Of a stretch of 64,000 nucleotides of DNA, positions 12,948 to 64,000 are shown in pieces (the stretch's first letter is position 1; each line of letters begins with the position of its first letter). The translations under genes and the position numbers were made by a program. The notes beneath the pieces were generated by a model, which saw only the letters and a program-made list of their open reading frames with translations, was not told the DNA's origin and ran no database searches. Source of the DNA: Psammoneis japonica (taxonomy: Eukaryota); the NCBI GenBank assembly GCA_008632985.1, contig QPGO01000004.1, positions 248,001 to 312,000 of the forward strand, read 5' to 3'.

Positions 12948-12959
12948 AAGGCCACAACC
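12948..12959 (-). other. Primer binding site (initiator tRNA-Met fragment type), mutated
   Basis: Minus strand reads GGTTGTGGCC directly after the 5' LTR; resembles the Copia PBS GGTTATGGGCCC with TA->TG. Confidence 0.6.
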
Positions 12960-27915: not shown

Positions 27916-27997
27916 ACCATTGGGTTTTAATGTCAGACTGTTCACATTCAAGATTGGAACCTGTGACCTGTGGTGAAGACTTGGTTCAATGGGTCAT
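27916..27997 (+). repeat. Split direct repeat B1 (probably 5'-truncated)
   Basis: 82-bp ungapped match to 28300-28381. Confidence 0.9.
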
Positions 27998-27999
27998 TG

Positions 28000-28208
28000 T
28001 TTGTTGGTCCTCAGAGTCAGAGCGGTGAGTGCATGTGGTGCACAAATTTGGACGGAAGGACAACCAGATGGATTTGTCAATTCTTTCGGCTGTGCACATG
28101 ACATTTGGTGAATTCTCATTTCCCAATGACTTTGGAAGTTGTTGACGACACTGTGACAATCATTGTCATGCACCACAAGCTCTGTCGAGTTGTCCCAGTC
28201 TTTTAAAA
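28000..28208 (+). repeat. Split direct repeat A2
   Basis: Copy of 22637-22868. Confidence 0.9.
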
Positions 28209-28299
28209 AATTCCCCAAACCCACCTCACATCAACTGTGGCAACACTGTCAGGTCACTGGGGGATTGTTCATGTTGGGAATGAAAATTTCCCAGGCCAA

Positions 28300-28381
28300 A
28301 CCATTGGGTTTTAACATCAGACCACTTGCATTCAAGATTGGGGTCCATGACCTGTGGTGAAAACTTGGTTTGATGGGTCAT
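28300..28381 (+). repeat. Split direct repeat B2
   Basis: Copy of 27916-27997. Confidence 0.9.
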
Positions 28382-28900
28382 CAAAACAAAGCAAAACAGA
28401 TGATGACATGGATGACTCCATCAACACATCAACCACCACCATGTGAAAGTTGCTTCATTTTGCATTTGAATCTGATCAGTTTGACAACATCCTGTTGATG
28501 GATTGTTTTGGGAAGACCAAAAAAAGCAGACAAGGAATCAGGCAAACCATGCAAGGCTTTCCTAAAAGCAATCCAAGAATCAGAACTGAGCCAGCAAAAA
28601 TTCGAAATGTGGAACAAATTGAAGCTTTGCAACGGTGAGAATGCATGCATGCCTGTTTGCAACACCACTCCAAGGGAGGGAGCCTGGCATGATTGGGCTG
28701 CAGTCAACTTTGACATGGATGACAGCTCCAATGACACATGCCTTGCAAGAGTCATCGGCATTTGCCGGGATGCAACAGGCGCACTGCTGCAAAGGCCATT
28801 GTTCATTCTGTTGATTGCAATCTGGTGACCGCGTGCGAGTCAACCTGTGGAGATGCCAGGCTGTTCACATGTTGCTGACAACAATTTCAGAGCAACGGCC
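28382..28900 (+). mobile_element. Plavaka-type transposase C-terminal part, resuming after the nested retroelement
   Basis: EGAWHDWAAVNF...CLARVIG resembles the WYDW motif at the C-terminus of this family. Confidence 0.55.
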
Positions 28901-29079
28901 TGCTGAAGATGTGCCATGTTCCCACATCCTGCATCAAGAGGGGTCTCCTTGTTTTTCAAACAAAACATCATGCAGACCCAGAGCCCCCCGCTGGATTTTG
29001 TTGCCCAACCATCGGAAACAGCACACCATGCATCATGGCAGTGCAACCCAGAATTGAGCAGCAGAGATGTTCGTCAAGT

Positions 29080-30080
29080 GGACGCAAGACATGATGGCAC
29101 AGGAGGAAGCAGAGTCTGACCATGTGAACAAGTGCAGCTTTCAGGCAGGGACCAGGTTGCTCCTGCAGAACATGCAAAGAACTGCAGGTTGGACAAGCAG
29201 CTGTGCAATCTAACAGCATCAATCAGCAGAGGTGACATGTCTTTGCATCTTACATCTTTCTCTGATGAGCATGAACCGGGTGGCCTGAGTGCATTGTGTT
29301 TTCCTTGGATGACGATTGGCAACCAATTGCCAATGATTTCCATCCATCGGGATGGACATGGGGATGGCAACAACACTCCTTTCCAATGAAATTGTGGATT
29401 CCTTGGGCACAATTGGCAGCAAGTTGTCAATGACATCCAGCTGGTTGTGCATTTCCAGAAATGCCCAGGCCCCTCAAAAGTTGCCACACATCAACTGTTT
29501 TGCCAAAAAATGGGAGCCTTTGCAAGTCACGTGCAGATCACTTCTTGCACGCAGCAATCCATTCTTTTGCAGCAGCTTCCTGTCTGCCTTTGCAATGTCG
29601 ACAATGTTGAATGAGCCTCTGCTTTGAAAGCAAATGGATCTGTCCTCTCCTCCAACATCAATCATGTGTCTTTGACATCAAGCTCCATGTGCCATCCCTC
29701 CACTTTCTCAAACAAGTGGGAGTTGATGAAACAGACAACAAGTCATGATGGCTTGGTGTGCGTTGGGAAAATTGCCCCAAACATGGCTTCCCAGTTGGTC
29801 TGCGAGTCCAATGCAGTGACTGCACATTTGTCGGTGGTTCTGTCCAACACATTGACAATTGATGCAGTTTCCTCATGGGGCAAAGGAGCGTCAACTCCAT
29901 CTTCAGCAGTCCCAAAGATGCTGAGGTGTGACAAATGATGACGTTCTTTGCAGAAAAATGGCGGTGCCACTTGTCACTCTGCAGTTTTTGCCCCACCTCC
30001 ATCAGCTGGGCAAGAGTGCAATCCTCCTGCAAATCAGGAAACTGTGGAGGGAAATCCACGTCGTTTGACATGGAAGACCA
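29080..30080 (-). pseudogene. Possible decayed Ulp1-like (C48) peptidase passenger of a DNA transposon
   Basis: VVAIPMSIPMDGNHWQLVA resembles the C48 catalytic-His motif; SDSASSCAI is a possible Cys motif. Heavily frameshifted. Confidence 0.3.
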
Positions 30081-33000
30081 GAAGTTGCTTTGTTGTGGAG
30101 TGAGTTGAGCAAACAGCAAGTTGACAGAAAAACACTGATGCACAACAAAGGCCAACATCAATGCATGTCATTGCATGGAGAAGAATCAATGCCAATGCTG
30201 TCATCACAGTCTCTTTGGAACAATCATCAGTGGAGTTAACGGGCTCAACAGACTTGTCTTTAAGATGGGGCAGTGGAGGTGATGCAATTGGCCACACAGT
30301 TGCAAGGAAAAGGGGCCATGGAGGTTGTGCAAAGCTGTGCAACTTGCCCCCAGTCAACTCCAGAAAAATCAAAGTGAGCAAAAGTCACATGGCAAAATTG
30401 AAAGTGGAATGATTGCAAGAAATGCAAACTGTTTTTGACATGAGCAGATTCACTCAACGCACAACATGCATTCATGATTGCATTGCTGCTCTTGCTGCCA
30501 CTGCAGTGCATCATGCCAATGACCAACATGAACACATCGAATGCACGACTTGTGAACTGAGCATCAACAAAGAAAGAAAACATGCAATGCAGCAAGGGGA
30601 AATCCACAAACATGTGCTGGTCAGGTGCGTCAATTGTTGAACAAAAGTTGGAATGCTAAAAATTTCACTTTTGGGTCAGTGGGCAACAATCACATGAATG
30701 ACAAGCATCATGAACATGCACAAACAAACAAAAAAGGTGAGATTCCAACAAGTGGTCATGCAATTGAATCAGTGAGAGGTCCACTCAATGTGTTGAGCCG
30801 TGCAAACCAGTTCAGTGCAGGGGATGATGACCTGTGATTCATGCCACCTTTTTCACCTCTCTGATGAAGTGTCCTCCCCTGAAGCATCCTCACAGAGCAG
30901 AGTTTCAGATGGGGGACAGAGTTGGCATTCAGACAATGCAAGGATCTCTTTCTGTCCTTCAAAGAGGGTGTGCATGATGTGGTGTTGGTGCTCACTTGTG
31001 TTGGGATCACACCCAACTCAGGTTGACTTGGACCTTCTTCAGACTGTCTTTTTTTGTCCAAGGCTGCAGCTGGTTTGCAGCACATCACACCAGCAGCAAA
31101 CAACAACTGTTCAAAAATGATGGAGTTGGTTGCTTCCCTTCTCCTGCTGCCAAAGTGACTTCTTCTTCATTCATGGCTTCTTGACTTGACATGTGTTGAC
31201 AACAGCATGCATGACTGACATGGGCCAATTGAAACTTTCTGTCACCTTGCACCTCAACCTTCATGATGCTCCTGCTGCAACCCATTTCTTCTGGATGGCT
31301 TGTTGGAACCATTTGACCAAACAAGCTGTGCACAAGTTGATGACATGGAGCAACAACAAACTGAGCATGGAAAGATGAAGCAACAGATGGTGGAAAAGAC
31401 AGACAGACAGCAGAGATGGAGCACTCTCCACAATGGTTGTTGCGTGTTCCCTGTGTCATTTTAGCAGAAAATGAGTGGTGTGAGGTGCCTGAAGCAAATC
31501 TACACTGCACAGCGCTGATGCCTTGTGCAGCATGCATGCAGACAAAAGGTTGTTTTTGTCATGCCCTTTGTGACATTTAAAGGCTGTGACACGTCGCCGT
31601 GATGCATCAACTCTCATTGGCAGCTGTGTGTTGCACTTGGACCAACAAGAGTGTGAATTCTTCAATGATGCAGCTGGCTGGCTCTTTTGTGCTCCTCTCT
31701 GTGGTGCCACCTCATTGTCCAAAAAAACCATCACATCATCCACGGTTTTTTGCTTGTTGATTTTTGACACCTTTTGGTCAGAGAGTCTTTGCAACAACTG
31801 GGCCATCAGATGTGCTGCAAGAACAAGTGCAGCACATGTTGTTGTTCATGCAAAATGGTGAGTTGCTTTTGGACACCTTGCCGCTCATTTTTTTCATGGT
31901 CATCATGGTCACCCACATTTTTCATTTTTTCATCTACACACCACATGCTCTGCAGCACACTGTGGCAAGAAGTGGCAAAGATGCAAAAAATCTTTGTTGA
32001 CCACCACTTCTGGGCACATCTTGGCTGTTGCTTGGGCTTTGTCTTGGGTGGGTCATTTGCTTTGTCATGGATTCCACAAACTTGAGATGATCTGAATTGG
32101 GCAAGAATAAATCTGCCACCAGTGGCAGCCATGCTGGGTGTGAACCAGTGGCACACTCTGGCCAACGAAGGATCCAGTGTGCTTGATGTGCCACCAGTGG
32201 CAGCTGCATCACAAATGTGTGCCAGTGGTGCAACAGCTGAGGAGAAGGACAGAACCATTGCTGGAGTCAAAGCCCTGTTCTGGTTTTGGTGTGCACCCCA
32301 TTTCATGAACTGTGGGGAGTTTGAGAGGTTTGAAGACAAAGTCGTGCACTCCTCCAATGCTGCCAACCATCAACCAGAAATGCTGGAGAACACACCACAA
32401 AAAAGCAAAAAAAGCACTCAACGTGCACCTTGCTTCTTCAACAGACACCAGCTTGCCCAGTCTCAAAGCAACTCTCTCGCAACAAAACAGCAAGCCAAGC
32501 TTCACACAGAAACATCACATGCACCCAACAACAATGGTTTCAAAATGCAGCTGTGAGCACCAAATCTGCACATCATAAAAAAGTCAACTGAAAAACCGCA
32601 AACATGCTTGAAGAAACCAAAAGAAGCAAAGTGGCATTGCTGCTGTGGCTGAGACTCTTGCACGGCAGCAAAGCAGAGCAAAGGTTTTTGTTCTTGATGG
32701 CAGCCAAACAGCCACAAATGATTGAGCAAGTGCCTCTGCCTTTCTCAACATGCACATGATGCTCACAAACAGCCAAGACAGGAGGCAGAAGCAAAACCCA
32801 ACACCAGTGACAAACCCGCACTGTTCTCTGCCACAATCAACAAAAAATGCTGACACACAGAGGTGTGCTAGATTTGGAGCATTGTCACTCTTGTTTTGTT
32901 TTGTGTTGCAGTTGTGTTCAATGACAACATGGATGCCATGCTTCAAACACAGTTGTCATCAATGGCATGACTTGGTTGAAGAATGGCTCCTTTGCTTTGA

Positions 33001-34440
33001 GATGGCACAGGGATGATCATGTGAAAAGGTGGGCCAACATGCAAATGTGATGTGCTGGTTGAGTGAACAAGTGCTCTCTAAGATGACTTCCAAGCAAAGC
33101 TGCTGATTGTTGCCAGTGCCACAATTTCTTGGCCAAGACTTGTCACACAGGATGCTGGAGACATGTGGAGCTTTGTGCAAAAAAAAAACCAGCGTGAGAG
33201 GTGCAGAGACAAGAAATGAGGAGTCATGGGGGGCAACACACATCATGTGAGCCTTGTCAGAAAGCCCACCAACTCAGGTCCTCAGCAGCTGATGCACTTG
33301 TTGCATTGTGCAGGGAAAATGGCAAAGGGTGGGACACAACTTTGCAGCTGCGCAGCTGGCTGGGAGGCTGGTGCTGGGAGCTTTGGCTCAGAGGGGCATC
33401 AGATGCTGCTGGCTGTTTTGAGTGGAGCTGGCTGCTGCAAGAACAAGAAAGGTTTCAGGGGTGGGGTGCATCTTCAAAACTCGAACTCATCAAAAAGCAT
33501 TCTTGACAAAGGCTGCTTCACCGCCGCTTGGACAGCTTGGCAACATGGCCAGGTTCTGCTGTGCCATTTTTGCCAGCGGGAGTGGCCAGCAGAAGTTTGT
33601 GCACAAAGAAGCTCTTTTGTCATCATCATCATCAGCAGCAGCAGCCACTGGTGGCTGCTCTGCAAATGAGTGCGGCGCAAATCTGTTGAGAAAGAGTGGC
33701 ACGATTGCACAGGAAATCTGCCAAAGGCAAGACCTGGAGGTTCTTGGACCTGTGGATTGCCTGCCTCGGATTTTTGCAGTGCAGATTCAACATGTTTGAG
33801 CCTCCTGTGCTCCGGCAGAGATTTCACTCTTGCATGTTGCAACCCCGCTGCTCACTTCTGTGTGTTATGGAGACTTCAGAACAACTGCGTGTTTGAGCCT
33901 GCACTGCAGAGATTGCACTCTCGCCAGCTGCTCCTGCAAATGCCCATTCTGCGTTGTTGCCTGCGCGCCTCAGAATGAAGTACTGTACTGTAGCAATGCT
34001 GGTATCGTGTAATGTGACGATTATTTATGAATATGTATATTTTATGATGTGTTCAGAAATCCTTCTAAACGGCACTTAAGTGCAGAGCATGGTAATTAGT
34101 CTCAAGAGATTCCTTAGAGTTCTTATATCAGCATTGAGAGCTATTTGGTTTAACTGTTATTGAATACACTCAATTATGATTCCATATTCACCGTTGCGAT
34201 CGAAGAATTTAAAATAGGACCCTAAAATATGAATAACGGTGAATAAAAAGCTAACGTTGACCGGTATTTTGTATTTTACCATTCAAAACTGCGAAACAGA
34301 AACGACAGAGAAGTGTCACATTTTTTTTTTATGTATTGCGCCAGGAAAAGCGCCTTTTGTTCAGAAGTCGGTAGTCACAAGATTGAGAGCAAGGCTAAAG
34401 ATAAAGTACGCTATTGGTAAAGTAAAGGATCACTGTCATA

Positions 34441-41670: not shown

Positions 41671-41974
41671 CCAGTCGCAGTTAGTTCATAGTCCATAGTC
41701 CCCGTCAAAACGCAATCACGCACGGGATCGCCACGGCGGTCAGACGCGATGGACGGATAGATGCATAGCGAGCATGGCTGGATACAACGCCGCAGAAGAA
41801 TCATCGACTTGAAGCATCCATCAGTGGTAGCCATTTCCATTGTTTGACTAGTTGTTAGCACGAACCATCTGTCTGTCGAAATTTTTTTTTGTACGTGAAA
41901 GAGAAAGGAGCCCCATGTACTGAGTACGGTACGCTATACGACTGGTGATCTCTCGATTCGCAACTTTGTTGAAC

Positions 41975-44437
41975 ATGTCTTTGATTCGGGTAATACTCCT
42001 GGCATTCATAATTCTTCCATGCAACGGGTTTCAAAACGGCAATTTCAAGTCACGAGATTTTCCTGCAGCATATTCTTTATGCCAGAAACGAAGATCCTCG
42101 CTCGGAGTTGTTGCCGCAGAGCCATCTCGCAACCCCATACCTCCATCGGGCAGACAACAAAGTTCTCGACAACGTAGATCTTCCAAGAAACAAGGAAAAT
42201 TGAATAACTCGCGACGACGCCATTCTCGGGAAAGCTCTGATGATCGATGGAAACAAGCGAAACAGACTGAAAAACAGTTGATCTATTCCTTGGACCGAAT
42301 GCAGGATGTGGTAAAGAACAGCAAAGGCTTTTCTGTGGCTTTCCCGTCGGTTCGAGACTGTAATGCTGCGTTGGCAGCATTTGGAGATCGTGGAGAGCTG
42401 CTTAGGGCGCTGCGTCTCTTTGTTAAGATGCGAAAGGCTGTTTCATTGGCGCAGTATTCCCTGAAAAAGGATGACCAAAGTTTTGCGTGGCGTGTTCCTG
42501 CTCCAACCCTTGTCACGTACTCAACTCTAATGTCACGTGCCGTCCAGGCAAGAAAGCCGCAAGTGGCACTTCGACTGTGGCGACTGATGACCATGCAAAC
42601 CGAATTCTTCTCAAATTGGAAAAACAAAGAATCACTGGCTGTCTCGCATTCTGATTTTATTTCGGACCCAATTGTCCCAGATGTCAAGGCTGCAAACATT
42701 TTGATGAATGCTTACGCGAAACTTGCGGATGTTCACTCTTCGCAGAATTTGCTTAGTCAAATGTTGCATGGAAATGGAACCGATGTGCCGAAAATGCAAC
42801 CCAATCTAGTCACATACAATACATTGCTAGATGCCTGTCACAAAGCTGGCGAATTGGACCATGCGTTGGCTGTAAAGCAACAACTTGAGGGCTCGGGGTT
42901 GATTCCGGACGCCCGAACGTACACCAGCCTCATTGCTACTGTAGCCCGAAAACCTAGTGCAGTTAGTGGGGCTTACGATCCGACCATGGCATTTAGCTTT
43001 CTACAAGAAATGTTTGCCCGTGGTATCAGACCAAACGGAATGACGTATTGTGCTCTCATTGATGTTTGTGGTCGTTGTAGACGAAGCGACCTGGCGTTAA
43101 AGGGGCTTCGTATAATGCTCCGACAAAAGAATAAGGAACAGCGAAGGATAAGTCAACGTGCTAATGGTGATGCTTCTCCGAAGAACTACACTCTGGTAAA
43201 CGAAGTCGGCGCTTGGACAGCGGCCATTGATGCATGTGGGAAAGCTGCACGGTTGAAAACGGCTCTTCGTTTGTTTAATGCTATGCCAAATTTTGGCGTG
43301 AAACCGAACACTATCACTTGTGGATGCCTCACAGATTCCCTCCTACGTGGCGGGCGCACCGCTGAAACATTGGATGTGCTACGATACATGAAACGAGAGG
43401 GCATTGTACCCAGTGAAGTCATGTACACTTCTCTCATGGCAAGTGCCGGGAGGCTTGCACAGGCAGAAAACAAACTGCAGTGGCAGGATGAATTAAGGAA
43501 CAGACAGCAAAATCAACAAGTAAATGATGATGCCATACAAGATGAGCTCTCGGTCGACCCCGGTGGAACGAAAGCAATACAGGTGTACACGGAACTGATG
43601 ACTACGCTGATGCGCCAGACCAACAGTCAAGACTCGGCGCAACAGTACGGAAAATCTCGCGAATCACAGAGCCTCGCCAATTACAAGGGTCGGGCTGTAG
43701 AGGACGCAAACACTCTTCTGGTGAAGGTGTTTCTTGTGTTTCAGGAAATGAAAGCCGCAGACACGCAACCTGACCTGGCATGCTATAATACCCTAATGCG
43801 GGCTTGTGCCAGGGCTGGAGATGTGAAACGGGCAAAAGACGTGCTAACCTTAATTTGTGCCGATGGTCTAGATCCCAACGATGCCACTTGGAGGGAAAGG
43901 ATACGAGCGGCAGGCAAGATCAGACGTAGCGACCTTGCCACAGATATTTGGAAAGAAGGACTTCAGTACAGAGGCTCTGATGATTCTTCGTCCAAACAAT
44001 GGAAACCCAGTGCTGTGTCCTTTGGAGCATTGGTATCGGCATATTTGCGTCATGCGACCTCTCTTGATCCTAGAGTACATCTGAAGAGCAAGCAGAAGCT
44101 GTATGAAACAGTGATTTCCATGTATCAATCTACAGGTGACTGTGACCATCTAGTAGACGGTGCAGTCCCATGTCCTGTGGATAGGGAGCAGCTGCATCAA
44201 TGTCAGCGAACGATGCTTCTCATTCTTCGCGCCGTCGTTTCGTTGGAGCATCTATGCGCCAGAAACCAAGGCACAACAGGGACAGATCCTGAACAAATAC
44301 TACATCTCCAAGAGATCGGTCGATCAATTGTATCTCTACCTTGTTTCCAAGACGAAGGGCTTGCGCTACCTTTTCGTGACGGTGCCTCCTTGAACGCGCT
44401 ACATCGCGCCAGAACTTGGATGTCAGTGAATCGATGA
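41975..44437 (+). CDS. Pentatricopeptide repeat protein, probably plastid-targeted
   Basis: Repeated PPR motifs (PNLVTYNTLLDAC, PDARTYTSLI, PNGMTYCALIDVCGR, PDLACYNTLMRAC); signal peptide followed by F (CNG-FQN) and an R/S-rich transit region. Confidence 0.95.
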   Translation: MSLIRVILLAFIILPCNGFQNGNFKSRDFPAAYSLCQKRRSSLGVVAAEPSRNPIPPSGRQQSSRQRRSSKKQGKLNNSRRRHSRESSDDRWKQAKQTEKQLIYSLDRMQDVVKNSKGFSVAFPSVRDCNAALAAFGDRGELLRALRLFVKMRKAVSLAQYSLKKDDQSFAWRVPAPTLVTYSTLMSRAVQARKPQVALRLWRLMTMQTEFFSNWKNKESLAVSHSDFISDPIVPDVKAANILMNAYAKLADVHSSQNLLSQMLHGNGTDVPKMQPNLVTYNTLLDACHKAGELDHALAVKQQLEGSGLIPDARTYTSLIATVARKPSAVSGAYDPTMAFSFLQEMFARGIRPNGMTYCALIDVCGRCRRSDLALKGLRIMLRQKNKEQRRISQRANGDASPKNYTLVNEVGAWTAAIDACGKAARLKTALRLFNAMPNFGVKPNTITCGCLTDSLLRGGRTAETLDVLRYMKREGIVPSEVMYTSLMASAGRLAQAENKLQWQDELRNRQQNQQVNDDAIQDELSVDPGGTKAIQVYTELMTTLMRQTNSQDSAQQYGKSRESQSLANYKGRAVEDANTLLVKVFLVFQEMKAADTQPDLACYNTLMRACARAGDVKRAKDVLTLICADGLDPNDATWRERIRAAGKIRRSDLATDIWKEGLQYRGSDDSSSKQWKPSAVSFGALVSAYLRHATSLDPRVHLKSKQKLYETVISMYQSTGDCDHLVDGAVPCPVDREQLHQCQRTMLLILRAVVSLEHLCARNQGTTGTDPEQILHLQEIGRSIVSLPCFQDEGLALPFRDGASLNALHRARTWMSVNR

Positions 44438-50231: not shown

Positions 50232-52028
50232 TTAGCAGCCCCGCCGTACTCGTTTCGAACGTCGCCCACTGTCCAACGATTCGTCTGTGTGAACAACGAT
50301 TGCCAATTCCATGTCACCAATCGAAACCTTGGTTTTCATCAAAGCTTTCCAAAGCAAGCCGGTCTGCGCAAACCGTCTACTCATAGTTGGACTGGCGAAG
50401 TACTGCAAAGCTTGTGCCGACCGAATTGGAGTTGAGGCAGTCGCTGCTGCTTGTTTAGTTATCTTGCCAAGAGCATTGCTCCGAACATCATGTGGGATAT
50501 TTGAAAACATTTTGCCAATTCCATTCGTGTGATTGGTCTGAAGAATTGGTAGAAATGCAGTTCCGCCACTTTGTTCCTCCCAGCACAAGAGCGAGTCAAA
50601 AAATGCGACAAGCCATGAAACTGCAGCTTCATGGTTGTCTCTAGAAGTCCATGCTCTAGGCTGGTTCCCTTTCCGGATAATATCATTATGAATCACATCT
50701 GCCAGCTTCACCATGACTTTTGTGAGCTGCAATGAGTCACCCCATTCATACGTGTATTGGCTTGCTACTCTGCTGGCCTCGCTGTAACACCGGAGTGCTT
50801 CTACGAGACGGTACTCGTCCGCGGCTGGGCTGTTGCCCTTGTCCCCAGCATCCTTGTGATAATGTCCAATGTAACAGTAAGGATAAACTTGCCCATCTGC
50901 GTACTTTTTGCGGCATATCCTAATCGCCTCGTGATATAAACCTTCCACAGCCAAACAACTATCAGAGCCGATTTCCTCCATTCGAACCCATGATTCTCCT
51001 CTTGAAGACGTCAGATGTTCTTCGCAGTCACCTAATTCAATCAAGGCAAACGGAAACGTTTTCAAATGACCCCCATCTTTCAACATCCATAGCAACTCAC
51101 GCTTCATCTCTATTAAAGGTTTGCTCAACACTTGACTCGAGTTCTTGTCCTTGGCGCCGTCGACAGAACAATTGATGTTGGCCAGAGCTGCGGCCATGGT
51201 CATTGCCTTGTTTTTGCACAACACAGGATGTTTGGCCATATAAAGCCAACTCTTTCCGGGTGTCAGCTTACTAGTCTTGCCACTTCCTTCTTTGGCTCGA
51301 AAGGTATCGTCGATTGGTCGACCACGTTTCGCCTGCGACGCCTTGGTGCTGCCAGGTATTGCCACCTCGCATGTTTCCAGTTCTTGAATCGGCTTTTCAT
51401 CAGAGGCATTGTTGGAATTGTCGTCTTTTGGGTGGCTTTCATAAGCATGATCTTCGCTTAATGTCAACATGGACGTATGGTATCCTAAACATTGTAAGCC
51501 AATCACCGTGCACAAGGCGGCCCCAAAACAATCCAAACTCTTCCGGTCGACCGACTTTCCTCTGAGACACACGTAGAGCGAGTTAGCATGTTGCTCGTCC
51601 TTCACATTCGCTTTCGATACGACACGTGACCAGACAAAATTTGAAACGGCCTGTGCAGCTTCACGGTGGCTCGAAACGTTTGATTGATTCACATGTTTCA
51701 CCAGCAGACTCAAGAACTCCGTGTCAACAAGTCTTAAAAGAGCTCCAACCGGGATCGGGTACAATTGGAATCGACGTTGAGGATCTTTGTGAGTTGCAAG
51801 AGCTTCACAGTATCCAAAAATACAGCTCCACAAAGCAAGTGTTTTCCCTTCACTAGTCGAAGCGTCGCTGATAGCCTTTCCAAAGTCGGCCTTGAGTTCG
51901 TCTAAAGAGTGAATTACTCGATCACCGTCACTATCAGCCTGAGATTCACACTGATGATTCAATGACTTCCAATGCTCAGATTCCGATGGGGGCGTTCGTG
52001 GATCGTCGTAGACGTAGGTGATGCCCAT
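50232..52028 (-). CDS. MEN1: Menin homologue
   Basis: Colinear Menin motifs: LDCFGAA...LQCLG...LTLSEDHA, EV...G...RG, SWLYM, ANIN, LLWML.D.GHL..FPFAL.ELGD.EE, LYHEAI....Y...VYPYCY.G.YH, EAL....EAS.V...Y.Y, FFDSLLCWEE.S. Confidence 0.9.
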   Translation of the reverse strand: MGITYVYDDPRTPPSESEHWKSLNHQCESQADSDGDRVIHSLDELKADFGKAISDASTSEGKTLALWSCIFGYCEALATHKDPQRRFQLYPIPVGALLRLVDTEFLSLLVKHVNQSNVSSHREAAQAVSNFVWSRVVSKANVKDEQHANSLYVCLRGKSVDRKSLDCFGAALCTVIGLQCLGYHTSMLTLSEDHAYESHPKDDNSNNASDEKPIQELETCEVAIPGSTKASQAKRGRPIDDTFRAKEGSGKTSKLTPGKSWLYMAKHPVLCKNKAMTMAAALANINCSVDGAKDKNSSQVLSKPLIEMKRELLWMLKDGGHLKTFPFALIELGDCEEHLTSSRGESWVRMEEIGSDSCLAVEGLYHEAIRICRKKYADGQVYPYCYIGHYHKDAGDKGNSPAADEYRLVEALRCYSEASRVASQYTYEWGDSLQLTKVMVKLADVIHNDIIRKGNQPRAWTSRDNHEAAVSWLVAFFDSLLCWEEQSGGTAFLPILQTNHTNGIGKMFSNIPHDVRSNALGKITKQAAATASTPIRSAQALQYFASPTMSRRFAQTGLLWKALMKTKVSIGDMELAIVVHTDESLDSGRRSKRVRRGC

Positions 52029-52471
52029 GGTGGTGTTGATTGTGTCTTTGTTTAGCAAGTGCTTGTGTCGCATAACGCGCAACCAGCACTATGTACGGTA
52101 CGTCGGGGCGCTCTGCGCGGCAACACTCTAAACCCACCGCAATCGGGGATCGAATCAATCTCTTTTGTTCGTTCCAATGCCGCACCGTTTCCACATTGGC
52201 CTCGGCTATAAAATGCTGCTAAAGGCAAACTAGTGGTCAATTCAGAGGCAACATTGACTATGTCTGCGGATTAGGATTCTCAGTCAAGACTCCCTCCGGA
52301 TATATAGTTCCACAGGTCGACAGACGGCGTCACCAATGCGATGAGCACAACAAAGATCCAAACACATGGAGATGAATTTCATTCTTTGTCGTCCTTTAAA
52401 CGTGAAAATGAGTTACACCCAAGCTAGACGATTCCATGCAAGCAGCATGTCACGCACCTTCGTTATCTATA

Positions 52472-53472
52472 TTAGGAATTGAGTTTGGTAGAGACGCCAC
52501 CAATCCGTTCCATATGCTTTGCATACTCCTCGTTCGTTCTCCACCGCGGACCAAGAGTCCATTTCAACTTGGTAGATGTGATTTTTCGACTATCCGGAAG
52601 AACTTCGCTGTCGCTATTTGGAACAATGTTGGTTACGCGTTTCATTTGGTATGGAACACCTCGCTGATTTCCGTAGACAAAGTCGCCAGTGTCAGGATCA
52701 AAGCCACGATCGTGAATCCAGAATTCATTTTTCCATAGTGATAGCTGATCCATGACACGAATGTTTGAGCCTGGCATCATTTGAGATTCTACAAGAGCTT
52801 CACCATAAATCATTACAGCATGAACTGCGTCCTTGTCTTCTTGCTCTTCCATGTAAGTATGTTGATCGGGATCTACATTGAAGCTCCATTGGACGTCACA
52901 CTTTTTAAGTTCCTTGTTTGGCATTTCATTTGAAGACATCTCTAGAAATTCCTTGTAAACACGGGGCCATTCCAACGGAGTCTCGGTGTAAGACTGTCGT
53001 ATCTGCCCTTCCAATGTAGGATGAAGAGTAAAGAGCTTCATGTTGATTGTGTCATGATCATGTTGAAGCAACTCATATAATCGAAATCGAAATATTCTTT
53101 GCGGTATACCATCAAAGTAAAAGGCAGCCAGTATTCTTCGGGTTTTGGTTTTGTTCAGATCGTCATCGTCGTCGCCAATCAACGGCACTAACGAACAATG
53201 AATGTGCTCATGCCCCCTCCCTCACGAGGCTCCATACCCCGCTCGCGATCTTGCACAACTTGATCATAATTGTCAAAATCACCCTGAAATCTCTCGACAA
53301 ATGTCTCCCAAAGATCGTTGTTGTTTCCATTTTTAGCGTGCAATCCGTGTGCATTGCAACATTGGTAAAAGAGTCGTTGTGGTATTGGATGCGAAAAAGC
53401 AGAAACTCGGGATAAAGCTACTGCGCCAATGAGAATTCGGGCAGTCCACCAAGACATGATAGATCTTTGCAT
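52472..53472 (-). CDS. CpcT/CpeT (CRUMPLED LEAF)-like protein, probably plastid-targeted; one apparent 1-bp deletion in a G-run at ~53215
   Basis: VSA-F presequence, FQGDFDNYDQ, GGG-HEHIH after frame correction, WIHDRGFDPDTGDFVYG...PY. Confidence 0.75.
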
Positions 53473-54775: not shown

Positions 54776-56261
54776 GCTACTTTACAGAAATATCAAGTTA
54801 TCTGGACGGCTAGGGCAGAAAAGTGAATTCTTCCTTTTGCCATTGACAATCGCCGCGGCATGAAAAATGTGATTGAAGGATCTTCGGACAGAGATCGAAG
54901 ATCGGCGGAAAGCAAGGTGACGCATGCCACTGCATAAATACTGCATGCCGCCACCGAAGTTTTTGTGCGACGTCAGAATTTTTATCAATAAGGTCATCAG
55001 ACAGTCATCGGTCATCGTGTTATCTTTTCTGCGCGACCGTGGACACCCTGCGAACAAGCCCATTTACAGCATTTGTTGGTGGCCGGTTGACGATGCTGTA
55101 GACCCCATGACCCCTCTGTGTTTTCACTTCAAAGTAAAGACAGCTAAATGGGTGGCAACAACCCCCAAGTTGTGTCTTTACTCCAGTGCAAAACAAGCTC
55201 TAAATGGGTGGCGATGAAGCATTTGGGCACAAGCACTGTCAAACAGGCAAAACGGGGTGCCCAAGCCGAAACTGCCTTCAAACTTCTGCACCAGTCAACT
55301 GCAACATTTTGATGTTCATCTCAAAACATCTGTTGATTTTCTCTCTGTTCATTGCCATGTTGGTTTTCCATGTCTCTTCATTGGCATCCCATCAAAAACA
55401 GACAAAGATGAGTCAACCCAACACAAGAAGTGTGCGCAGCCTCATTTCAGCCAGCACTCAAAATGGAATGAAAGATTCAGCCATGCACAGGAAGAGCTCA
55501 GTGCAGGTGCAACAAGCAAAGAGGGAGCAGCAACAAGAGCAGACAACAAGAAAAAAGCAAAAAGCCAGTGGTCAAACAGCGGCAATCCAGACAATGATGA
55601 GGTTGAGAAAGAGGGCCAGCAACGGGCTCATTCACGAAGCACAAGCTGCAGGCATGCAACAAACTGTTCAACTGACTCAAGACATGTGCATTGGATTTCA
55701 GCCCAACAGGAAACATGAGCCATTTTGAAAATGGCCACTGCTCTTTGGTTCTCCTCTGTGTGGATCTTTGTCAGACCCCGCGCTGAAAACTTCTCCTGGT
55801 TTTCAGAGTCATCAAGCAAGACATCTGAGGAGGATGGCTCAGATGGTGAAGCAGGGCATGCACTGAGTTGGGAAGACTTTTCCAACCCACCAATCTTTTT
55901 TTTTTTACTTCAAAGGACAGGTGGTGACATCTTCATTGGCTGAAGCACAAAGCGTGCTGTGCGCTCCATCCTGGAAATGCTGATTCCATCCGGCACCTTG
56001 GATTCTCAAAACTGAGTTTGTCATGCATGTGGGGAGACAGGAGAAATGAAGCATCAGCAAGCCATTGGCACTGCTGCACCATCATGAAAAAAGATGCAGA
56101 CAATGAGAATGATGACATCACTTGCACTTTTTGTGACTCTGCTGTGGTGAGCCAAGTGCCAGAACATGTCGAAGGTTGGTGATGGCTGCAGGCTGACGTC
56201 AGGAGGTGCCACAAAATGGAGCCTCAACAAGCAGTGATCACCTCCATTTTGTGGGGAAAAA

Positions 56262-56564
56262 NNNNNNNNNNNNNNNNNNNNNNNNNNNNNNNNNNNNNNN
56301 NNNNNNNNNNNNNNNNNNNNNNNNNNNNNNNNNNNNNNNNNNNNNNNNNNNNNNNNNNNNNNNNNNNNNNNNNNNNNNNNNNNNNNNNNNNNNNNNNNNN
56401 NNNNNNNNNNNNNNNNNNNNNNNNNNNNNNNNNNNNNNNNNNNNNNNNNNNNNNNNNNNNNNNNNNNNNNNNNNNNNNNNNNNNNNNNNNNNNNNNNNNN
56501 NNNNNNNNNNNNNNNNNNNNNNNNNNNNNNNNNNNNNNNNNNNNNNNNNNNNNNNNNNNNNNNN
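56262..56564. other. Assembly gap (303 N) flanked by 28-bp perfect inverted repeats
   Basis: caagcagtgatcacctccattttgtggg (56228-56255) is the reverse complement of 56565-56592. Confidence 0.95.
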
Positions 56565-56599
56565 CCCACAAAATGGAGGTGATCACTGCTTGTGACCAA

Positions 56600-58050
56600 A
56601 TGAGATCATCACCTGCTTGCAGCATGAGTGCCCTTGGCTTTTTGAAGTCCTTGACAGAGCAACACAAGCCAAGTGTCATGTGACGAAAGCTGCCACGTGG
56701 TGCAATTGCACGGATTGTCGGTGCAAATGTCCAGACAAGCAGAGTCAGATTGAAAAGCAGACTTTGCACTTTGACATTGACAACAACAGGGCCAAAACAC
56801 AAGTGCCATCTCTCAATCACCTGTTGGAAGCAACCACACAAGAAATTGAGTCAGAAACTCTGCATTGTGGACACAAAACAACAATGAATGGAGGTCCACT
56901 CCTGTCGGGTGATCATTTCATGACAACTGGAAAGGTGGTTCTCACCAACAATCAAAGAGGATTTGCAAGCATGCATTCAGTTGTGAATGAATTTGGCAAG
57001 ATGCCACTCTTCCACCATGCAGCTGGCACAACATCATTGGAGGTTGAAGACAGCCTCCAAGGTTTGAACAGGAGGCACCAACTCCATGGCTTCAAGGGTC
57101 CCATTGCATTTGCAACAGATCAGTGCTGCAACAAGAGGGCATTTTATGAAGGAGCCAGGAACAACAGGGAAAAGCTGATCTTTCATTCTTTAATTCCCAA
57201 GACAAGAAAAAATGGATGTCACTGTGAAGAGTGATGCCACAAGCAATGATGGTGCACTCTGATTTTGATCAAGTTCTGGCAGGGTTGGAAGTCATGGAAC
57301 ACTTGGATGTGCCCAAGCCATCTGTTGCATTTTCTGCAAAGGCAGTGGTGGGTGCAGCTGTTGACAACATCATGTCAAAGTGCATTGCCAATGGTTGGGA
57401 GGACACAACATTGATTGATTTGGAATGGGCTGTCAAGAGCAAAAAAGGCCCTGACATTGTTCAAGCAACTGCCATGGATTCAGAGACCTGTGTGTTCAAC
57501 AAGCCTTTCCCAACTGGCTTGGTCACTCTCCTTGAGAGTCATCTGCATTGAAGAAACTGCCCTTGAAGATTTCCGCTGACCCAAACAAGTCATCTCAGAG
57601 GATTGGTGCCAAGTCAATGAATTGTGCAAATCTTCAAGACACGCTAAAGGAAGAACACAGTGTTGTGCAAATGGCAACTGTGGGTCTCTCCAACACATGC
57701 AAAGAACTGTCAGGAGATGTGGTGTCAACAAAGACAACCATCTTCACTTGTTTGATTGGAGAAGTTCCAAGAATTGGTGACAAGTGACAAGCACCACCAA
57801 CACGCCACTTTGGATGACTCATGCATCCGAATGATGGCACATTTTAAAATGCTGTTAGAAATGCCACACACAGATCCAAAAGCCAATCTTGCCCCTTCTT
57901 TGGAAGAACAAAAGGAAAATCAGAAACTCCTTCTGTGTGCAAGTGACAAGTCTGCAGTTGCTGCAAAACCAACCCTCCTGCATGCAGGGCAACTGACAAC
58001 ACCCTGCAGAGATTGGGAAATTTGATTGGCTTCTCAACAGACAGGTTTTG
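56600..58050 (+). mobile_element. Decayed transposase-like ORF followed by a DEDDy 3'-5' exonuclease domain
   Basis: LSGDH...SVVNEFG...LQGLNRRH..HGF.GP..FATDQCC resembles DUF6729-associated transposon proteins; then IDLEW...DIVQ...FPTGLVTLLES and QHATLDD (from YAALD). Confidence 0.55.
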
Positions 58051-60199
58051 TTTCTCCCTCTTTGGTGAAGAGCTGGAGTCTTGCAATGTCATTTTGCCAA
58101 CAACTTCTGACTTGTCATGAAGTGACTGAATGGTGTCCTCATCCAATTTCTCCAGTTGACTCTCATCCAGATGGGCACAGAGGAATGGGCACCACCCAGA
58201 TGACTCAATGCAGCCAAGTGCACAGTGCAAGTGCAAAGGCTCTCCACAGGAGTGAGAAAGTCCTGAGTGTCACATCAAGGCACAAACTGCAATGCAAGCA
58301 TTTTTTTGGGGGGGGGAGGGGGGGGCTTGTTGTCCTCTGATGACAAGACAAAGATGAAGCTGTTTTCTCTACATCAGTGACAATGTCTTTGGGGACTTGT
58401 TTGAGCTTGTCATCTTCCAAGTTGATGACCACCCCACAAACTTTAGAGCAGAAATGCAAGTTGGCCTCCTTGAATGGTTTTTTTTAGCAAACTGCAAAAG
58501 TTCACAACAACAGCAATTTTCTGGAGAAATGAGCTGAAGTGGCACGGGCATGCTTGTCAGCAAAAGGAAACTTCACATCTCAAAACAAAAGCTCAAGGCC
58601 CACAACTGCAGCTGTCTAGCTGAGGACCAAGGGCACCTCCCCTTGTGACTTTCCAACTTTGGAAGGATCCACTGCAACAGCAATTTTTGGCTGCAGGAGG
58701 CATCCTGCTTTCCTTGTGTTCTAAAACACGCCTTGCTTGAGCATCTGGGTCAACCAAGCCACACCATTTTAGGACAAACATGACTTCATCATTCCAAGTG
58801 TTGAGCTTCAAGTCAAGACCATCAAAGACTTTTTGACAGTTTTTTGAGAGAGCAAAACTTCAGCACAGTGCAATGTGTTTGCAATGGAGACAAGCATTTT
58901 GACCAACTCTGGCAGATCTGCTGGCTTTGTCATCAACTGTCCCTTTGATCAAAAAGTGATGCAGTCCCAAAATGAGCAGAAACCAGTCTCACATGATGGT
59001 TTAAATGAAGCTCATTGGCAACCAACTGGCAGAAAGAGGATGAAAATTTTGTGTCAAACCAGTGGTTGGTGGTTTTGTTGTGAGTCTGATGCAGTCATCT
59101 CATTGCAGCAGCTGATCTCATTTGGCTTGCCATTCATGATGCACCTGCTGCATTGAAGCACAGGACTTGCACTCTTTGGCATGGTCTTGTCATCCAGGGA
59201 CTCATGGTGAGTTGTTTTGGACAGGTCAATGCTGCACTGCAGTGGAAACCTTGACCAGAACTTTTGTCTGACACTTGCAGCTTCTTCAACTCTGGAAGCT
59301 TGGGTGTGCACTCTGGATCCTGCTTTGTCAGCTGCTGCTCTGTCTTTTTCTGTGGCTCAGTTGGCTTGGGTTTCATGGGCTCTGACTTCAGCTGTGGCCC
59401 TGGCTTGTTGTTCATTTGGCATTGGCTCTGGCTGGGGCACTGGCTTGCTTGGCTTTGTCTGCTTTGACTCTGGCTTGAGTTTCAGACCTGGCTCCATTGA
59501 CTTTGGCTGTGGCTCCTGCTTTTTTGCTTTGCCATCAGCTCTTGACTTGATGGATTGGGCTCCTGCTCATGCTTTGACTTGGTTGGTTTCACCAGAACAT
59601 CTTCTTTGGGGGAATCATCCATTGTGAGAGAGATCCTGCTTCATCCCCTTGGACACACAGGCCTCCATTTGTGGCACCACTGCACCACAGCTTGTGTTGG
59701 AACATCCAGAAAAAACAGGAAATCTGAGGAACCTGGATGTGTTGAAGAGAAGACATTGTTGCTCCTGACATGGAAGACTTGGTGACTCTTTGCCATTGGA
59801 ATTTCATCATCACCAATCTCTCTTGCCTTTCTGTTTGTTGCACTCTTTAGAGCAAATTATTTGGTTTCTTTGGATTGTGCAATTCTGTTGCATTGGTGCC
59901 ACCAGGTGTCTGTTGCATTGCAGGTTTGAAGTTTGTGTTGACAACTTCCAGCCAAACCACAGCCACTGCAGCCAAGTGGCTGAGGCAAGACAACGAGTGG
60001 CACAGGAAGCCTTGTGGGACTCCCTTTTGGTGACATTAACTTGCTGGTTCAACATTCACTCCAAAGAGCCTCTGGCACTGCATTTGGTGCTGAACAACAC
60101 TGTTCCATCTGATTTGACTGACTGTCATTGAGTGCCTGCACAATGAGCAGAAGAGGAAGCAGCAGATCTGGCAACTGAGGCTGAGGATGCAGCTGGTCA

Positions 60200-63100
60200 T
60201 GGAACAGGTGACAAGAGCCACAGGTCTTCTGGCTCAAAGAAAAAAACAATCATCAAGAACCACTTTCAGCCTGAGATTGAGCTCTGTCATCCTTCATCAC
60301 CAAACAGCAACTCATGCAATGCAACACATGAAGACATCAAGGAGAAGATTGCATGACACATGTGCAGAAGGAGTGCACTCAAGGCATGCATTTGGCAAGA
60401 AGACATGAAGTGCAAGGACTTTGGTTCTGAGAAACCAAGTCAAGTGCAGCCATGACAGTGTGCCAAGAGAGGGAGACACAAACAGTTGGTCAGAGCTGGA
60501 AAAAAATGCAACCAGAGGAAAAAGAGCTGGGGTGCCCACATGAGGTGGACCTCCATGAATGCAATGACAAGATGAGGCAGTTCAAAGAGAACAAAACTGC
60601 CACACTTGCCATGATTGCAGATGATTGTTGTGCCAAATGCCAAACAGACAAAGCAGGGAGTGCAAGGCAATCCCAGTTCAACAAAAATTGGGGACAATCT
60701 GGTCAAACCACTGAAGCTCATTCAATCACTTGCACTCAACTCCATGAGATGTTGACACCCATTTCACACACTGGCAACCAAATCCCTGTGGAACATGCTG
60801 GATGTGAAATGACAAGATAACAAGTTGCTGAATGACAACCTCTCAACAGCACATTCAACAATCAATGAGATGACACAAATGAAAGTCTCAGGAACAAGAT
60901 GCCAGATGGATTCATTTCCAATGCCAAGGAGTGCAAGGACAGAGCATTGCAGTGAAAAGCAAGTGCTGAAAGATGCAGCACTTGCGACATGGACAACATT
61001 TCTGTTTGTGGAAAATGGCAACAATTGCCCCCCACCCAAGAGCTTGAAGAAAAGCCATGTTAGAGACTGCAGCCTGGGCAAGGGCACACATCCTGAGACC
61101 CTTGACAAGCAACAGATGCACTGCTGAGTCATCCAAAGACAATGGCCCTTGCAAGAGACACAACAAGAAGAACAATGAGTGCACAAACAACAAGAACAGC
61201 AACAATGAGAGCAAGAGCAAGAGGTCTGACCATGCAAAAAACCAGAGTCATGCCCAGAAAGGCAATCAGAGTGACACTTCAGTGTGCCACTGTTGCAATG
61301 AACTAAATCACAAGTCTCCAGACTGCAAGCATTTGAACAATGTTGCACTCAACAGCTGATTCAAGAATGCTGGCATTGAGCTGGACACCAGGGAACAGAG
61401 TCACACACAAAAATGAGATGAAGATGCCTTGTTGGTGGACAGCAACAACGCCAGTGTTGACACCACCAGATCCAATTGATCAACATGTTCCAGCCAAAGC
61501 AGGTGTGCTGCATTGCATGGATTGCAGCTGGCAAACAAGTGACTGGAGACAAGCATGAGCCAGGCCAATGAAGACATTGGCATGGATGAGACAATCCTTG
61601 ACAATGGCTCCACCCTCAGCATGGCAGCAAGCCAGAGACCACTGCACAATGTGTGGTGGGTGAAGATCAAGATTGATCTGTCCACAAGTGCAGGTGGCAA
61701 AGATCAAGATTGATGGGTGGGGGGGCAGCATGAAGCTCAGATCACAGAGTGCAGCAGCGAACATCCTCAGTTTAAAGGACGTGAAGAGCAAGCACTGTGT
61801 CACACGTGACTGGACAAGAAGACTGGCAAGCAAGTTCCAGAAGTTCTTTGACCATGCAAAAGATCTTCAAGAGGGCAAGTTGTGCATTGGCATGCTGTCA
61901 AGGAAGAAGAAGTGGAGCAAGAAGAATGACAAGAAGCACAGGAGTGCATCTAGAGCTGCTTTTCTGACAGCAGAGCAGAGCTCTACTGGCTGCTCCAAGA
62001 GGGAGGTTGCAAATGCTGAGCAAGTGCTCAGACTTTGTTGCAAAGCTGAAATTCCCAGTGTGAGAGATTGCAAGCCTTTTTTGCAATCAAACCAGGTGAA
62101 GAGCTTGTCCATGACTGTGCAACATTGTGCCTGAAAATGTGGACAGGATGGTGGCCATTTGGGTCATTAAAAAAGGAAAGACCAAACACGCACATCAGCC
62201 CCACAAGAAGAACAACATGATGGCAATTCTGCCTGAGACATCATGCAAGAAGTAGAGGAGAGAAGGCATGATCCTCTGCATTGACATTGTGGAAGTGTGC
62301 AGAGCCAAGTTGCTGTGCGCAATTGACAAGACAATCAAGTGTCAATCAAGTGTGAGATTGCACTCAAAGAAGCACGTTGATGTGTGCAGCATGCTGGACA
62401 TGATGGTGTGCCAGCACACCACAGCTTTGTTCAAGATTGACTTTGTTGAGTGTGATTCTGAGTTCAAGAACATGCCGGCAAAAGCCACAGATGGCATGAA
62501 TCTAGAACTGATGTTTGCAAACACACCAGCGACCATGTTCCCAAAGTTGAGCAAAGCATTGAGATCATCAAGGAGCAAACTTGAGCCACAGCACACCACC
62601 TGCCACACAAGATGATGCCCAAGAAGTTTGTGTGAGCATGCCATGATCAAGAGCACTGTGATGGCAAACATGCACCCATGGAAGGAAAGAATCTCTGACA
62701 CGTGCAGTCCACACACTGTCATGCAACAAAGAAACCTTGACCATGACAAGCACTTCAAGTTTGCCTTCAGCTCATTTGTCTTGTCTTGCATTGAAAACAA
62801 CCCAACAAACACCATGGCTGCACACGGCATTAACAGCATGCACTTGCAACCACATTTTGACATTCCTGGGGGTGGTCACTGCTCTGTGAATTCACACATT
62901 ATGGGGAAGCTGCTAAACCCATGCAAGTGCACTGCTGCACCCTTGACTGACAAATGCACACAAGCAGTTGACAAGATAACCTCAGCACAAGGCATCAAAG
63001 ACTTCAAATTTGTGGGCAAATGTGGGGACAATCTGCCCAATGCGGATTGGACTGCAGGAGCAGACAATGACAACAGCAAAGACAAAAGTGACAGCAAAGA

Positions 63101-64000
63101 CAAGAATGAGCACAAAAGCACCAGCTGTGTGACAGAATCTGAAGACAAAGATTGTGAAAACACCCCTGATTCAGATGGTGAACATGAAGAAGCAAATGAG
63201 ATGCCAGCAGGTGAAAAATCCAGTCCCAGTCAACAGCAGGAGAAGCAAGAAGACTGAAAGAGACAAAGCACCCACAGAGGAGACAAGAGGAGAAGAGAAG
63301 CTGGAGAAAGAGGCAACCAAGATGCCAGCCAGAGTGACAAGGAGTGGCACAAGATTTGGGGCATCCCACAACATGAAGTCACATGAACACAGAGAAAAGA
63401 CAGTTCAATTGCAGGAGTGGCAGATGCAGAAGCAGAGCAAGAAGAGCAGAACAAATGTGAGCCCCAATCCAGGGGACAACAACATTGAGTGTGATGCAGA
63501 AAGAGGAATGGTTTCAGCACAATTTGTGTGCAACAAGATCAATGACCAGGTCCAATCAGGAAAGAGCATTTCCTTTGCCCAACAGCATTTGCCACATGAA
63601 AGCCTCAAAGTGTTTGGCCAGAAGGAGCCCAGGCACAATGCCTCAGAGAAGGAGATGAAACAACTTTGTGACAGGGTGTGCTTTGCACCAACATCAGTCA
63701 AAGATGACATGACTTGAGCTGAGAGGACCAGTGCTGTGATTGCCTCAATGTTCCTGATGGAGAACCAAGATGGTTGCATGAAATGGCAAATGGTCTGCAA
63801 AGGAAAACTGACCAAAGAATGGATGAACAAGGATGAGTCAGCAAGTCCAACAGTGTTGCTGGAAGGAACACTGATGACAGCAGTCATTGATGCCATGTGG
63901 AAGAGTGCAATGCAATGAGCATTGATGCACTGAGCATGTTTGTGCAGACACAGATTCCAGAGCCCAAAGAAGTCAAAAACCAGATTGTGATGACTGCAGG
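60200..64000 (+). mobile_element. Second Ty1/Copia (CoDi-type) element, decayed, running off the window
   Basis: Zn knuckle CHCCNELNHKSPDC, protease ILDNGSTLS, ANILSL.DV, integrase HVPKVEQSI and NLDHDKH, RT start KEMKQLCDRVCFAP...MFLMENQDG...SASPTV...MTAVIDA. No LTR identified. Confidence 0.85.

Follow-up and report, generated by a model that had tools for sequence, protein, structure and literature searches.

Which TpA dinucleotides persist in DNA that has lost nearly all of them, and what decides their survival? A 64-kb stretch of Psammoneis japonica DNA (assembly GCA_008632985.1, contig QPGO01000004.1, positions 248,001 to 312,000; hereafter the window) poses this question. Observed/expected dinucleotide ratios, computed per kilobase across the window, reveal three tracts poor in both TA and CG, which we delimited by a criterion of at most six TA per 500 bases. 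Within them TA observed/expected is 0.00–0.14 (0.00–0.12 in tract 3), rising to 0.25 in the kilobase that holds the right edge of tract 1. CG in the tracts is 0.02–0.54, while TG and CA reach 1.5–2.2. The two gene regions between the tracts retain TA at 0.41–1.04. Loss is confined to the tracts, has sharp edges and spares the genes, as a process restricted to mobile DNA would, and tracts 1 and 3 contain copia remnants. We think it likely that the survivors record the kinetics of a mutator directed at repeats, one that converts TpA to TpG or CpA faster or slower according to the base following the A.

Survival of TA depends on its flanking bases. We grouped TA sites by their outer neighbours (Y, pyrimidine; R, purine) into YTAR, the half-sites YTAY and RTAR, and RTAY. 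A first-pass annotation of this DNA had counted by eye, from 55200 to 64000, roughly 30 TA, about two-thirds of them YTAR and none RTAY. The exact count is 30: 21 YTAR (70%; TTAA 7, TTAG 6, CTAA 5, CTAG 3), six YTAY (TTAT 3, CTAC 2, TTAC 1), three RTAR (ATAA 2, GTAG 1) and zero RTAY. Across all three tracts, 146 TA comprise 70 YTAR, 36 YTAY, 38 RTAR and only two RTAY, namely ATAC at 6552 and GTAC at 7693. The 1114 TA of the gene regions divide instead into 207, 298, 281 and 328, and this contrast between islands and genes, which the annotation had proposed as a check, bears it out (chi2 89.7, p = 2.5e-19). Relative to the gene regions, density is down 4.5-fold for YTAR (0.22), 12-fold for half-sites (0.084) and about 250-fold for RTAY (0.004). 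TTAA is the most resistant context, at 0.40–0.54 of baseline density; at the other end, ATAT has no survivor, and GTAC and ATAC/GTAT have one each. Survivors are evenly spread over the tracts and do not cluster in unmutated patches, and the commonest hexamers around them are TCTACA/TGTAGA (12) and TTTAAA (10). The 469 CG of the same tracts show no context hierarchy (chi2 1.5, p = 0.68), so the neighbour effect is a property of TA loss itself rather than of the tracts in general. CpG decay in the tracts is a separate, context-free process.

The context skew of the surviving TA is independent of ancestral composition. Four stand-ins for the ancestor were compared: the gene regions; 36 unmutated copia loci from metagenome contigs, described below; a first-order expectation from the tracts themselves; and the tracts' own NTGN/NCAN contexts. 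Shares of YTAR, half-sites and RTAY are 0.186/0.520/0.294 in the gene regions and 0.158/0.533/0.309 in the unmutated copia loci. For the 21, 9 and 0 sites at 55200–64000, the gene regions predict 5.6, 15.6 and 8.8 (chi2 54.3, p = 1.6e-12), with a probability of 2.9e-5 of finding no RTAY at all, and the copia loci predict 4.7, 16.0 and 9.3 (chi2 68.0, p = 1.7e-15). Taken over all tracts (70, 74 and 2), the departure grows to p = 6e-24 and 2e-30, respectively. First-order expectation gives 29.4 RTAY where two are observed (p = 6.6e-9), and regenerating TA from the NTGN/NCAN contexts would yield about 24% RTAY, against 1.4% seen.

Decayed retrotransposons within the window reveal what the lost TA became. 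The tract 1 element is a copia-type long terminal repeat (LTR) retrotransposon whose polyprotein remnant aligns with P0001, an intact 1414-amino-acid relative bearing PF13976, PF07727 and PF25597; collinear tblastn matches cover residues 88–1412. At 46 positions where P0001 has tyrosine, the element retains none: 21 codons now read cysteine (TGY), 17 histidine (CAY) and eight something else. The 38 changes to cysteine or histidine mean that TA became TG or CA. Across 199 aligned columns, the LTR pair of this element differs by 23 transitions and six transversions, and 16 of the 23 transitions form eight dinucleotides at which one LTR has TG and its partner CA. An LTR pair is identical at insertion, so each copy acquired these changes on its own once the element was in place, with hits on either strand. 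The same discordance marks another repeat pair, in tract 2 (Table 1). These two pairs, of about 200 columns each, are the usable ones in the window and hold too few sites for context statistics.

Tract 3 ends in a second decayed copia-type element. P0001 gave no tblastn match to this tract even at E = 50, and the open reading frame (ORF) at 63133–63714 had none in a word-indexed protein search. An exhaustive HMMER search with the read-through of 63403–63999 (stops as X) found 502 relatives at E of 0.001 or below. All eight of the longer relatives scanned carry RVT_2, four of them at the Pfam cut-off, and several are collinear with 61745–63992. Ten codons that are mostly tyrosine in the relatives include no tyrosine here, four histidines and two cysteines, and conserved arginines often read glutamine, histidine or cysteine. 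These matches and codon changes identify the tract end as a decayed copia-type element hit by both TA and CG conversion. No LTR is seen, since the window ends within the element. The features of Ty1/copia elements (LTR pair, gag–protease–integrase–reverse transcriptase order, RVT_2) accordingly place the elements of tracts 1 and 3 in that group. Pfam searches recovered little from such eroded DNA: 42 stop-free ORF pieces of tract 1 yielded only SH3_retrovirus (1.7e-8) and a sub-threshold zf-RVT, 74 pieces of tract 2 yielded no family, and tracts 2 and 3 together, with 106 pieces, yielded none beyond one sub-threshold ZSWIM match.

Environmental relatives with inferable ancestors allowed the hierarchy to be followed site by site. 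Scanning metagenome contigs with an alignment of P0001–P0004 gave 181 relative-encoding stretches, the best 80 of which were taken as loci (L001–L080). Over these best 80, TA observed/expected runs from 0.81 down to 0.01, and in the 79 loci that contain 10 or more TA, a lower ratio goes with a smaller RTAY share (Spearman 0.62, p = 8e-10), which drops from 0.31 in 43 loci above 0.6 to 0.10 in eight loci below 0.35. Many loci form one family with 80–95% identical DNA. We projected 72 loci onto L040; at each column the base shared by the majority of 25 unmutated members stood for the ancestral one, which defined 5032 of 6652 columns and 178 consensus TA. Ten independent mutated elements were scored (from 14 loci, four duplicates having been merged or excluded); the nine that are partly mutated provide 782 consensus-TA sites, after exclusion of outcomes other than TA, TG or CA (at most six such sites per class and locus).

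These nine elements reproduce the hierarchy and reveal its direction. TA was retained at 27% of RTAY, 45% of YTAY, 43% of RTAR and 65% of YTAR sites (44% for half-sites overall). Among changed sites the TG share is 0.68 for YTAY, 0.29 for RTAR, 0.52 for RTAY and 0.54 for YTAR, and 132 of 197 half-site changes fall on the predicted, TAY-carrying strand (p = 2e-6). The direction of change against a transposon consensus, a further check suggested by the annotation, thus came out as expected. We fitted by maximum likelihood a competing-risk model in which, on each strand, the base 3' of the A determines how fast that A is hit. Relative rates are 1.08 for C, 1 for T, 0.46 for A and 0.38 for G (likelihood ratio 83.5, 3 degrees of freedom, p = 5e-18), and no strand bias is left over (factor 1.05). 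On the coding strand, TG outnumbers CA in several elements (42 to 15 in L058, for example), an apparent bias that the abundance of TAY on coding strands largely explains once the neighbour rule is modelled. With unchanged flanks required, the Y-over-R effect is present in seven of the nine elements, four of them at p < 0.05.

The process is specific to TA at every stage of decay. In L058, A became G at 49 of 95 sites preceded by T, against 1 of 177, 8 of 206 and 1 of 174 preceded by A, C and G; unmutated members show A-to-G differences at 1–8%. TA-specific erosion recurs from 0.48 to 0.01 observed/expected (L032, L056/L057, L039/L041, L058/L059, L070 and L073), and in the last of these, with TA 0.01 and CG 0.69, 5.5 kb retain just four TA. 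Environmental relatives thus undergo the process too, so that it is no oddity of a single assembly.

A strand-additive model recovers a similar order from the window itself. Fitted to four sub-tracts with either the gene-region or the unmutated-copia baseline (exposures 1.7–2.6), it gives relative rates by 3' base of 1 for T, 0.80–0.85 for C, 0.45 for G and 0.12–0.18 for A, and it outperforms equal rates under either baseline (likelihood-ratio chi2 133–164, p from 1e-28 to 2e-35). Products point the same way. After subtraction of the baseline and half of the CpG loss, YTGY/RCAR tetranucleotides gained 533–850 copies and YCAY/RTGR 58–126, which places 0.81–0.94 of half-site changes on the TAY-carrying strand, assuming that the tracts were once baseline-like. 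We discarded a model that multiplies one factor for the base preceding the T by another for the base following the A, because the densities of the three classes in the window admit no real solution under it.

A per-strand rule would account for these patterns. The mutator would act on integrated element DNA and convert TpA to TpG or CpA, at rates ordered by the base after the A on the struck strand, about T = C > G > A; viewed from the other strand, the same rule would concern the base before the T, with purine ahead of pyrimidine. Each TA presents one such neighbour per strand. RTAY would consequently be fast on both strands and vanish first, YTAY and RTAR would be fast on one, and YTAR, with TTAA as the extreme, would be slow on both and so survive. 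What the counts show directly is a TA-specific process in repeat DNA that strikes both strands once an element has integrated, with a rate that varies with the neighbour on the struck strand; we infer that this neighbour effect is the substrate preference of an enzyme. The annotation had drawn enzyme specificity from a tetranucleotide preference: the effect does behave like a substrate preference, but a per-strand TAY fits better than a four-base site. The motif would be 5'-TAY-3' if the A is the target and 5'-RTA-3' if the T is, alternatives that sequence alone cannot separate. It is quite possible, if short of an even bet, that a deaminase of DNA adenine is at work, whether of the TadA/ADAT2 type or from another clade, which is recruited to silenced repeats and turns A into inosine, read as G. 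We favour adenine deamination because it was proposed for the same signature in the alga Bigelowiella natans (Mettrop et al., bioRxiv 10.64898/2026.01.13.699255) and because TadA-derived enzymes can show a 'YAC' preference on DNA.

Several observations weigh against so simple a rule. In the window, the additive model predicts 9.6 surviving RTAY where there are two, and about 15 CTAC/GTAG where there are 27, and its rate for a following A lies below the 0.46 of the metagenome family. At position +2 downstream, surviving window TA also carry A more often than expected (151 against 88, counted strand-wise), and A is again in excess at +3, equivalent to a T before the T on the other strand; neither excess is reproduced in the metagenome copia family. 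Within that family, L050 and L016, which are small and more divergent, show no Y-over-R effect. Tyrosine codons of the window elements change in the predicted direction as a trend that is not significant (13 cysteine to 7 histidine after a pyrimidine, 10 to 14 after a purine; Fisher p = 0.14). Window-level rates and the product-excess estimate rest on borrowed baselines, which stand in for the ancestor over most of tracts 2 and 3. These misfits may leave room for an extra effect of the RTAY palindrome, for regenerated TA among the survivors, for unmodelled heterogeneity or for differences between organisms.

The first of these possibilities can be taken further, to a true palindromic duplex site: an enzyme, for example a dimeric one, could read RTAY as a four-base unit and tolerate half-sites weakly without choosing a strand. 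The scarcity of window RTAY beyond the strand-additive prediction speaks for such a site, all the more as mixed exposure among tracts should, by reasoning from the Cauchy-Schwarz inequality, push the opposite way, and in L032 only 2 of 19 RTAY were kept against 27 of 41 YTAY. Yet half-sites prefer their TAY strand in both family and window, and family survival is near additive, with 0.27 x 0.65 = 0.18 for the extreme classes against 0.44 squared = 0.19 for half-sites; we rate the palindromic site as improbable. A chemistry aimed at thymine deserves somewhat more weight, although we still consider it unlikely. Here the T of RTA would be modified by a TET/JBP-type enzyme, for instance to 5-hydroxymethyluracil, mispair with G and end as C. 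5-Hydroxymethyluracil occurs preferentially at TpA in dinoflagellate DNA. TAY on one strand is RTA on the other, and all our counts fit the thymine route equally; nothing in the sequence speaks against it, and the one paper on the signature, the Bigelowiella preprint, favours adenine deamination by analogy and not by experiment.

The survivors might also be mostly new TA, created by C-to-T changes in TG/CA-rich DNA with a context bias of their own (such as TCA to TTA). Creation does occur: mutated family elements carry 1–26 TA each at positions that are not TA in the consensus, mostly CA or TG there, and the A excess downstream of window survivors could be its signature. Differential loss is nevertheless seen directly at the consensus-TA sites of the family, context-neutral creation would leave RTAY at the share expected from NTGN/NCAN contexts, far above that seen, and new TA in the family do include RTAY (6 of 20 in L016, 5 of 19 in L035), which leaves this explanation only a slight chance. 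Editing of retrotransposon transcripts by an ADAR- or ADAT-like enzyme before reverse transcription, fixed as DNA, would share with ADARs and fungal mRNA editing the U before the edited A (PMC4817773). We hold it to be very improbable, given that both strands are hit about equally, that the LTRs of one element diverged as TG versus CA after integration, and that the 3' preferences described for these editors run the opposite way, to G in ADAR and to A and G in fungi (PMC4817773). That the surviving contexts merely mirror ancestral composition, the outcome that the annotation itself named as fatal to its proposal, has next to no probability: the departures from the gene and copia baselines span p = 1.6e-12 to 2e-30, RTAY ranks first among the classes in genes (328 of 1114) and second, at 31%, in unmutated copia relatives, and we found no point in its favour.

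The nearest precedent for the mutator that we favour is in Bigelowiella natans. That species shows TpA-restricted hypermutation of integrated giant-virus and virophage DNA, and reverse transcriptase and DDE domains are over-represented among its coding sequences that are depleted in TpA and enriched in CpA and TpG; an adenine deaminase is the agent that its authors propose (bioRxiv 10.64898/2026.01.13.699255). Our elements share the TpA to TpG/CpA changes and their limitation to foreign or repeat DNA, as the tyrosine codons and discordant LTR dinucleotides of tract 1 and the A-to-G changes of L058 attest. Unlike that study of a chlorarachniophyte with measured de novo rates, ours concerns fixed differences in another lineage. 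The main text of the preprint contains no neighbour-base rule and none of the words context, flanking, trinucleotide and tetranucleotide; its Table S2, which lists the 231 de novo TpA mutations, could bear on such a rule.

Repeat-induced point mutation (RIP) converts C:G to T:A, chiefly at CpA, and thereby creates TpA. Described in Neurospora and other ascomycetes (PMC2621366), it resembles the process reported here as a repeat-directed, dinucleotide-specific, two-strand DNA transition mutator that leaves skewed dinucleotides and has a graded neighbour preference. The difference lies in the outcome: here TpA is destroyed and TG/CA created, so that G+C content is not lowered. RIP itself is ruled out, since TA at about 0.05 and CA/TG at about 1.8–2.0 of expectation are the opposite of what it leaves.

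RNA editors resemble the process at the base before the target and differ at the base after it. Like ADARs, it changes A to G with T (U in RNA) preferred before the A (PMC4817773, PMC11334849). Human ADARs prefer a following G, 5'-UAG-3' (PMC4817773), whereas G and A are the slow contexts here, and ADAR acts on RNA whereas both DNA strands changed here. The annotation's argument that retained TAG speaks against an ADAR-like origin therefore holds, with a following-G rate of 0.38–0.45 of that for T, and the changes on both DNA strands after integration reinforce it; ADAR-type editing is rejected. In the ADAT-linked A-to-I mRNA editing of Fusarium and Neurospora, U precedes 86% of edited A (PMC4817773), A or G is preferred after it, with UAG and UAA the leading triplets, and C follows it least often (PMC4817773, PMC11334849). 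This order is the reverse of ours, and the fungal substrate is again RNA.

A comparison with TadA and ADAT2 gives a mixed picture. The natural substrate of TadA is the UACG anticodon loop. As in TadA/ADAT2 contexts, the target A here is preceded by T, which the L058 data indicate to be obligatory, and C is among the favoured bases after it. On DNA, the A48E variant of TadA-8e prefers to edit adenine in 'YAC', where a pyrimidine precedes and C follows (PMC13109818); here a following T is as good as C. Amphioxus ADAT2 can deaminate DNA, with preferences for GAA at adenine and TCG at cytosine (PMC10354150), whereas the process here targets TA and not GAA. The annotation had likened the loss of TAY contexts to the UAC substrate of TadA-type deaminases: the preference for C fits that likeness, the equal preference for T does not, and the link to TadA remains a resemblance by analogy.

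Table 1. Positions of the tracts, gene regions and elements in the 64-kb window
Feature	Position	Strand	Evidence or content
Tract 1, TA-poor and CG-poor	1-14250		72 TA: 27 YTAR, 13 YTAY, 30 RTAR, 2 RTAY
Copia-type LTR retrotransposon, tract 1	6548-13146	-	LTR pair, SH3_retrovirus, collinear tblastn
LTRs of tract 1 element	6548-6735 and 12959-13146	-	Repeat pair
Polyprotein remnant, tract 1	6915-10277	-	36–63% identical to P0001; frame changes
Gene region, unmutated (baseline)	14251-18000		Contains ABC-type ATPase ORF
ABC-type ATPase ORF	14428-15786	+	Pfam match
Tract 2, TA-poor and CG-poor	18001-33750		45 TA: 23 YTAR, 17 YTAY, 5 RTAR, 0 RTAY
Repeat pair, tract 2	22637-22868 and 28000-28208		7 TG-versus-CA discordant dinucleotides
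Gene region, unmutated (baseline)	33751-55250		Three Pfam-matched genes inside
PPR protein	41945-44437	+	Pfam match
Menin-like	50232-52082	-	Pfam match
CpeT-like	52472-53188	-	Pfam match
Tract 3, TA-poor and CG-poor	55251-64000		29 TA (30 from 55200); sharp left edge against gene region
C-x2-C-x4-H-x4-C, which we take to define a gag-type zinc knuckle	61285-61326	+	Found by eye in translation of decayed retroelement
Decayed copia-type polyprotein: integrase region, then start of reverse transcriptase	61745-63992	+	Collinear with RVT_2-bearing relatives; runs off window end

Tract 3 has some local features of its own. A 13-base direct repeat, CTAAATGGGTGGC, lies at its left edge, with copies at 55144–55156 and 55200–55212. 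A run of 303 N at 56263–56565 occupies the centre of an inverted repeat, as the flanks 56216–56262 and 56566–56600 are mutually reverse complementary; this assembly gap probably marks a palindrome or a hairpin-forming inverted duplication. At 58300–58325, a T run gives way to some 17 G interrupted by one A (tttttttgggggggggaggggggggc). Comparison of 56566–64000 with contigs of one DNA run, the only run to contain this stretch and possibly the source of the assembly, gave 26 differences: nine CG versus TG/CA, eight that sit in seven dinucleotides of TA versus TG/CA (one of which is TG in the contig and CA in the window) and nine other changes. They are either allelic or close-paralogue variants of the TA and CG processes, too few and unpolarised for a context test.

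Loss of CpG is uncoupled from loss of TA. The window tracts lost both, whereas the metagenome family keeps CG at 0.6–0.8 whatever its TA loss. The copia element of tract 1 (7–13 kb) has CG observed/expected of 0.4–0.54 while TA stands at 0.03–0.14. Among the window's 10 large gene ORFs, Pfam searches matched no deaminase family.

The TpA dinucleotide signature is already known from one source, the 2026 B. natans preprint, and we found no other description of it in the literature. As far as we have seen there, three points are new: the rule on neighbouring bases, the fact that it is read strand by strand, and its reappearance in copia elements from the environment. The order of T and C, then G, then A is common, per strand, to this genome and to independent environmental retrotransposons. 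Such a reproducible order favours an enzyme that has a defined binding pocket over diffuse DNA damage. It excludes ADAR-like and fungal ADAT-like preferences, narrowing the search for candidates, and it supplies a quantitative test for oligonucleotide assays, published mutation-accumulation data and genome scans. More speculatively, and with considerable doubt, one may envisage a dedicated genome-defence DNA adenine deaminase, repeat-guided and specific for 5'-TAY-3', in diatom-like algae, their environmental relatives and perhaps chlorarachniophytes: a mirror image of RIP. If the reading as a TAY deaminase is true, the neighbour rule would be an enzymatic fingerprint by which to pick out the gene and to recognise the process in genomes and metagenomes.

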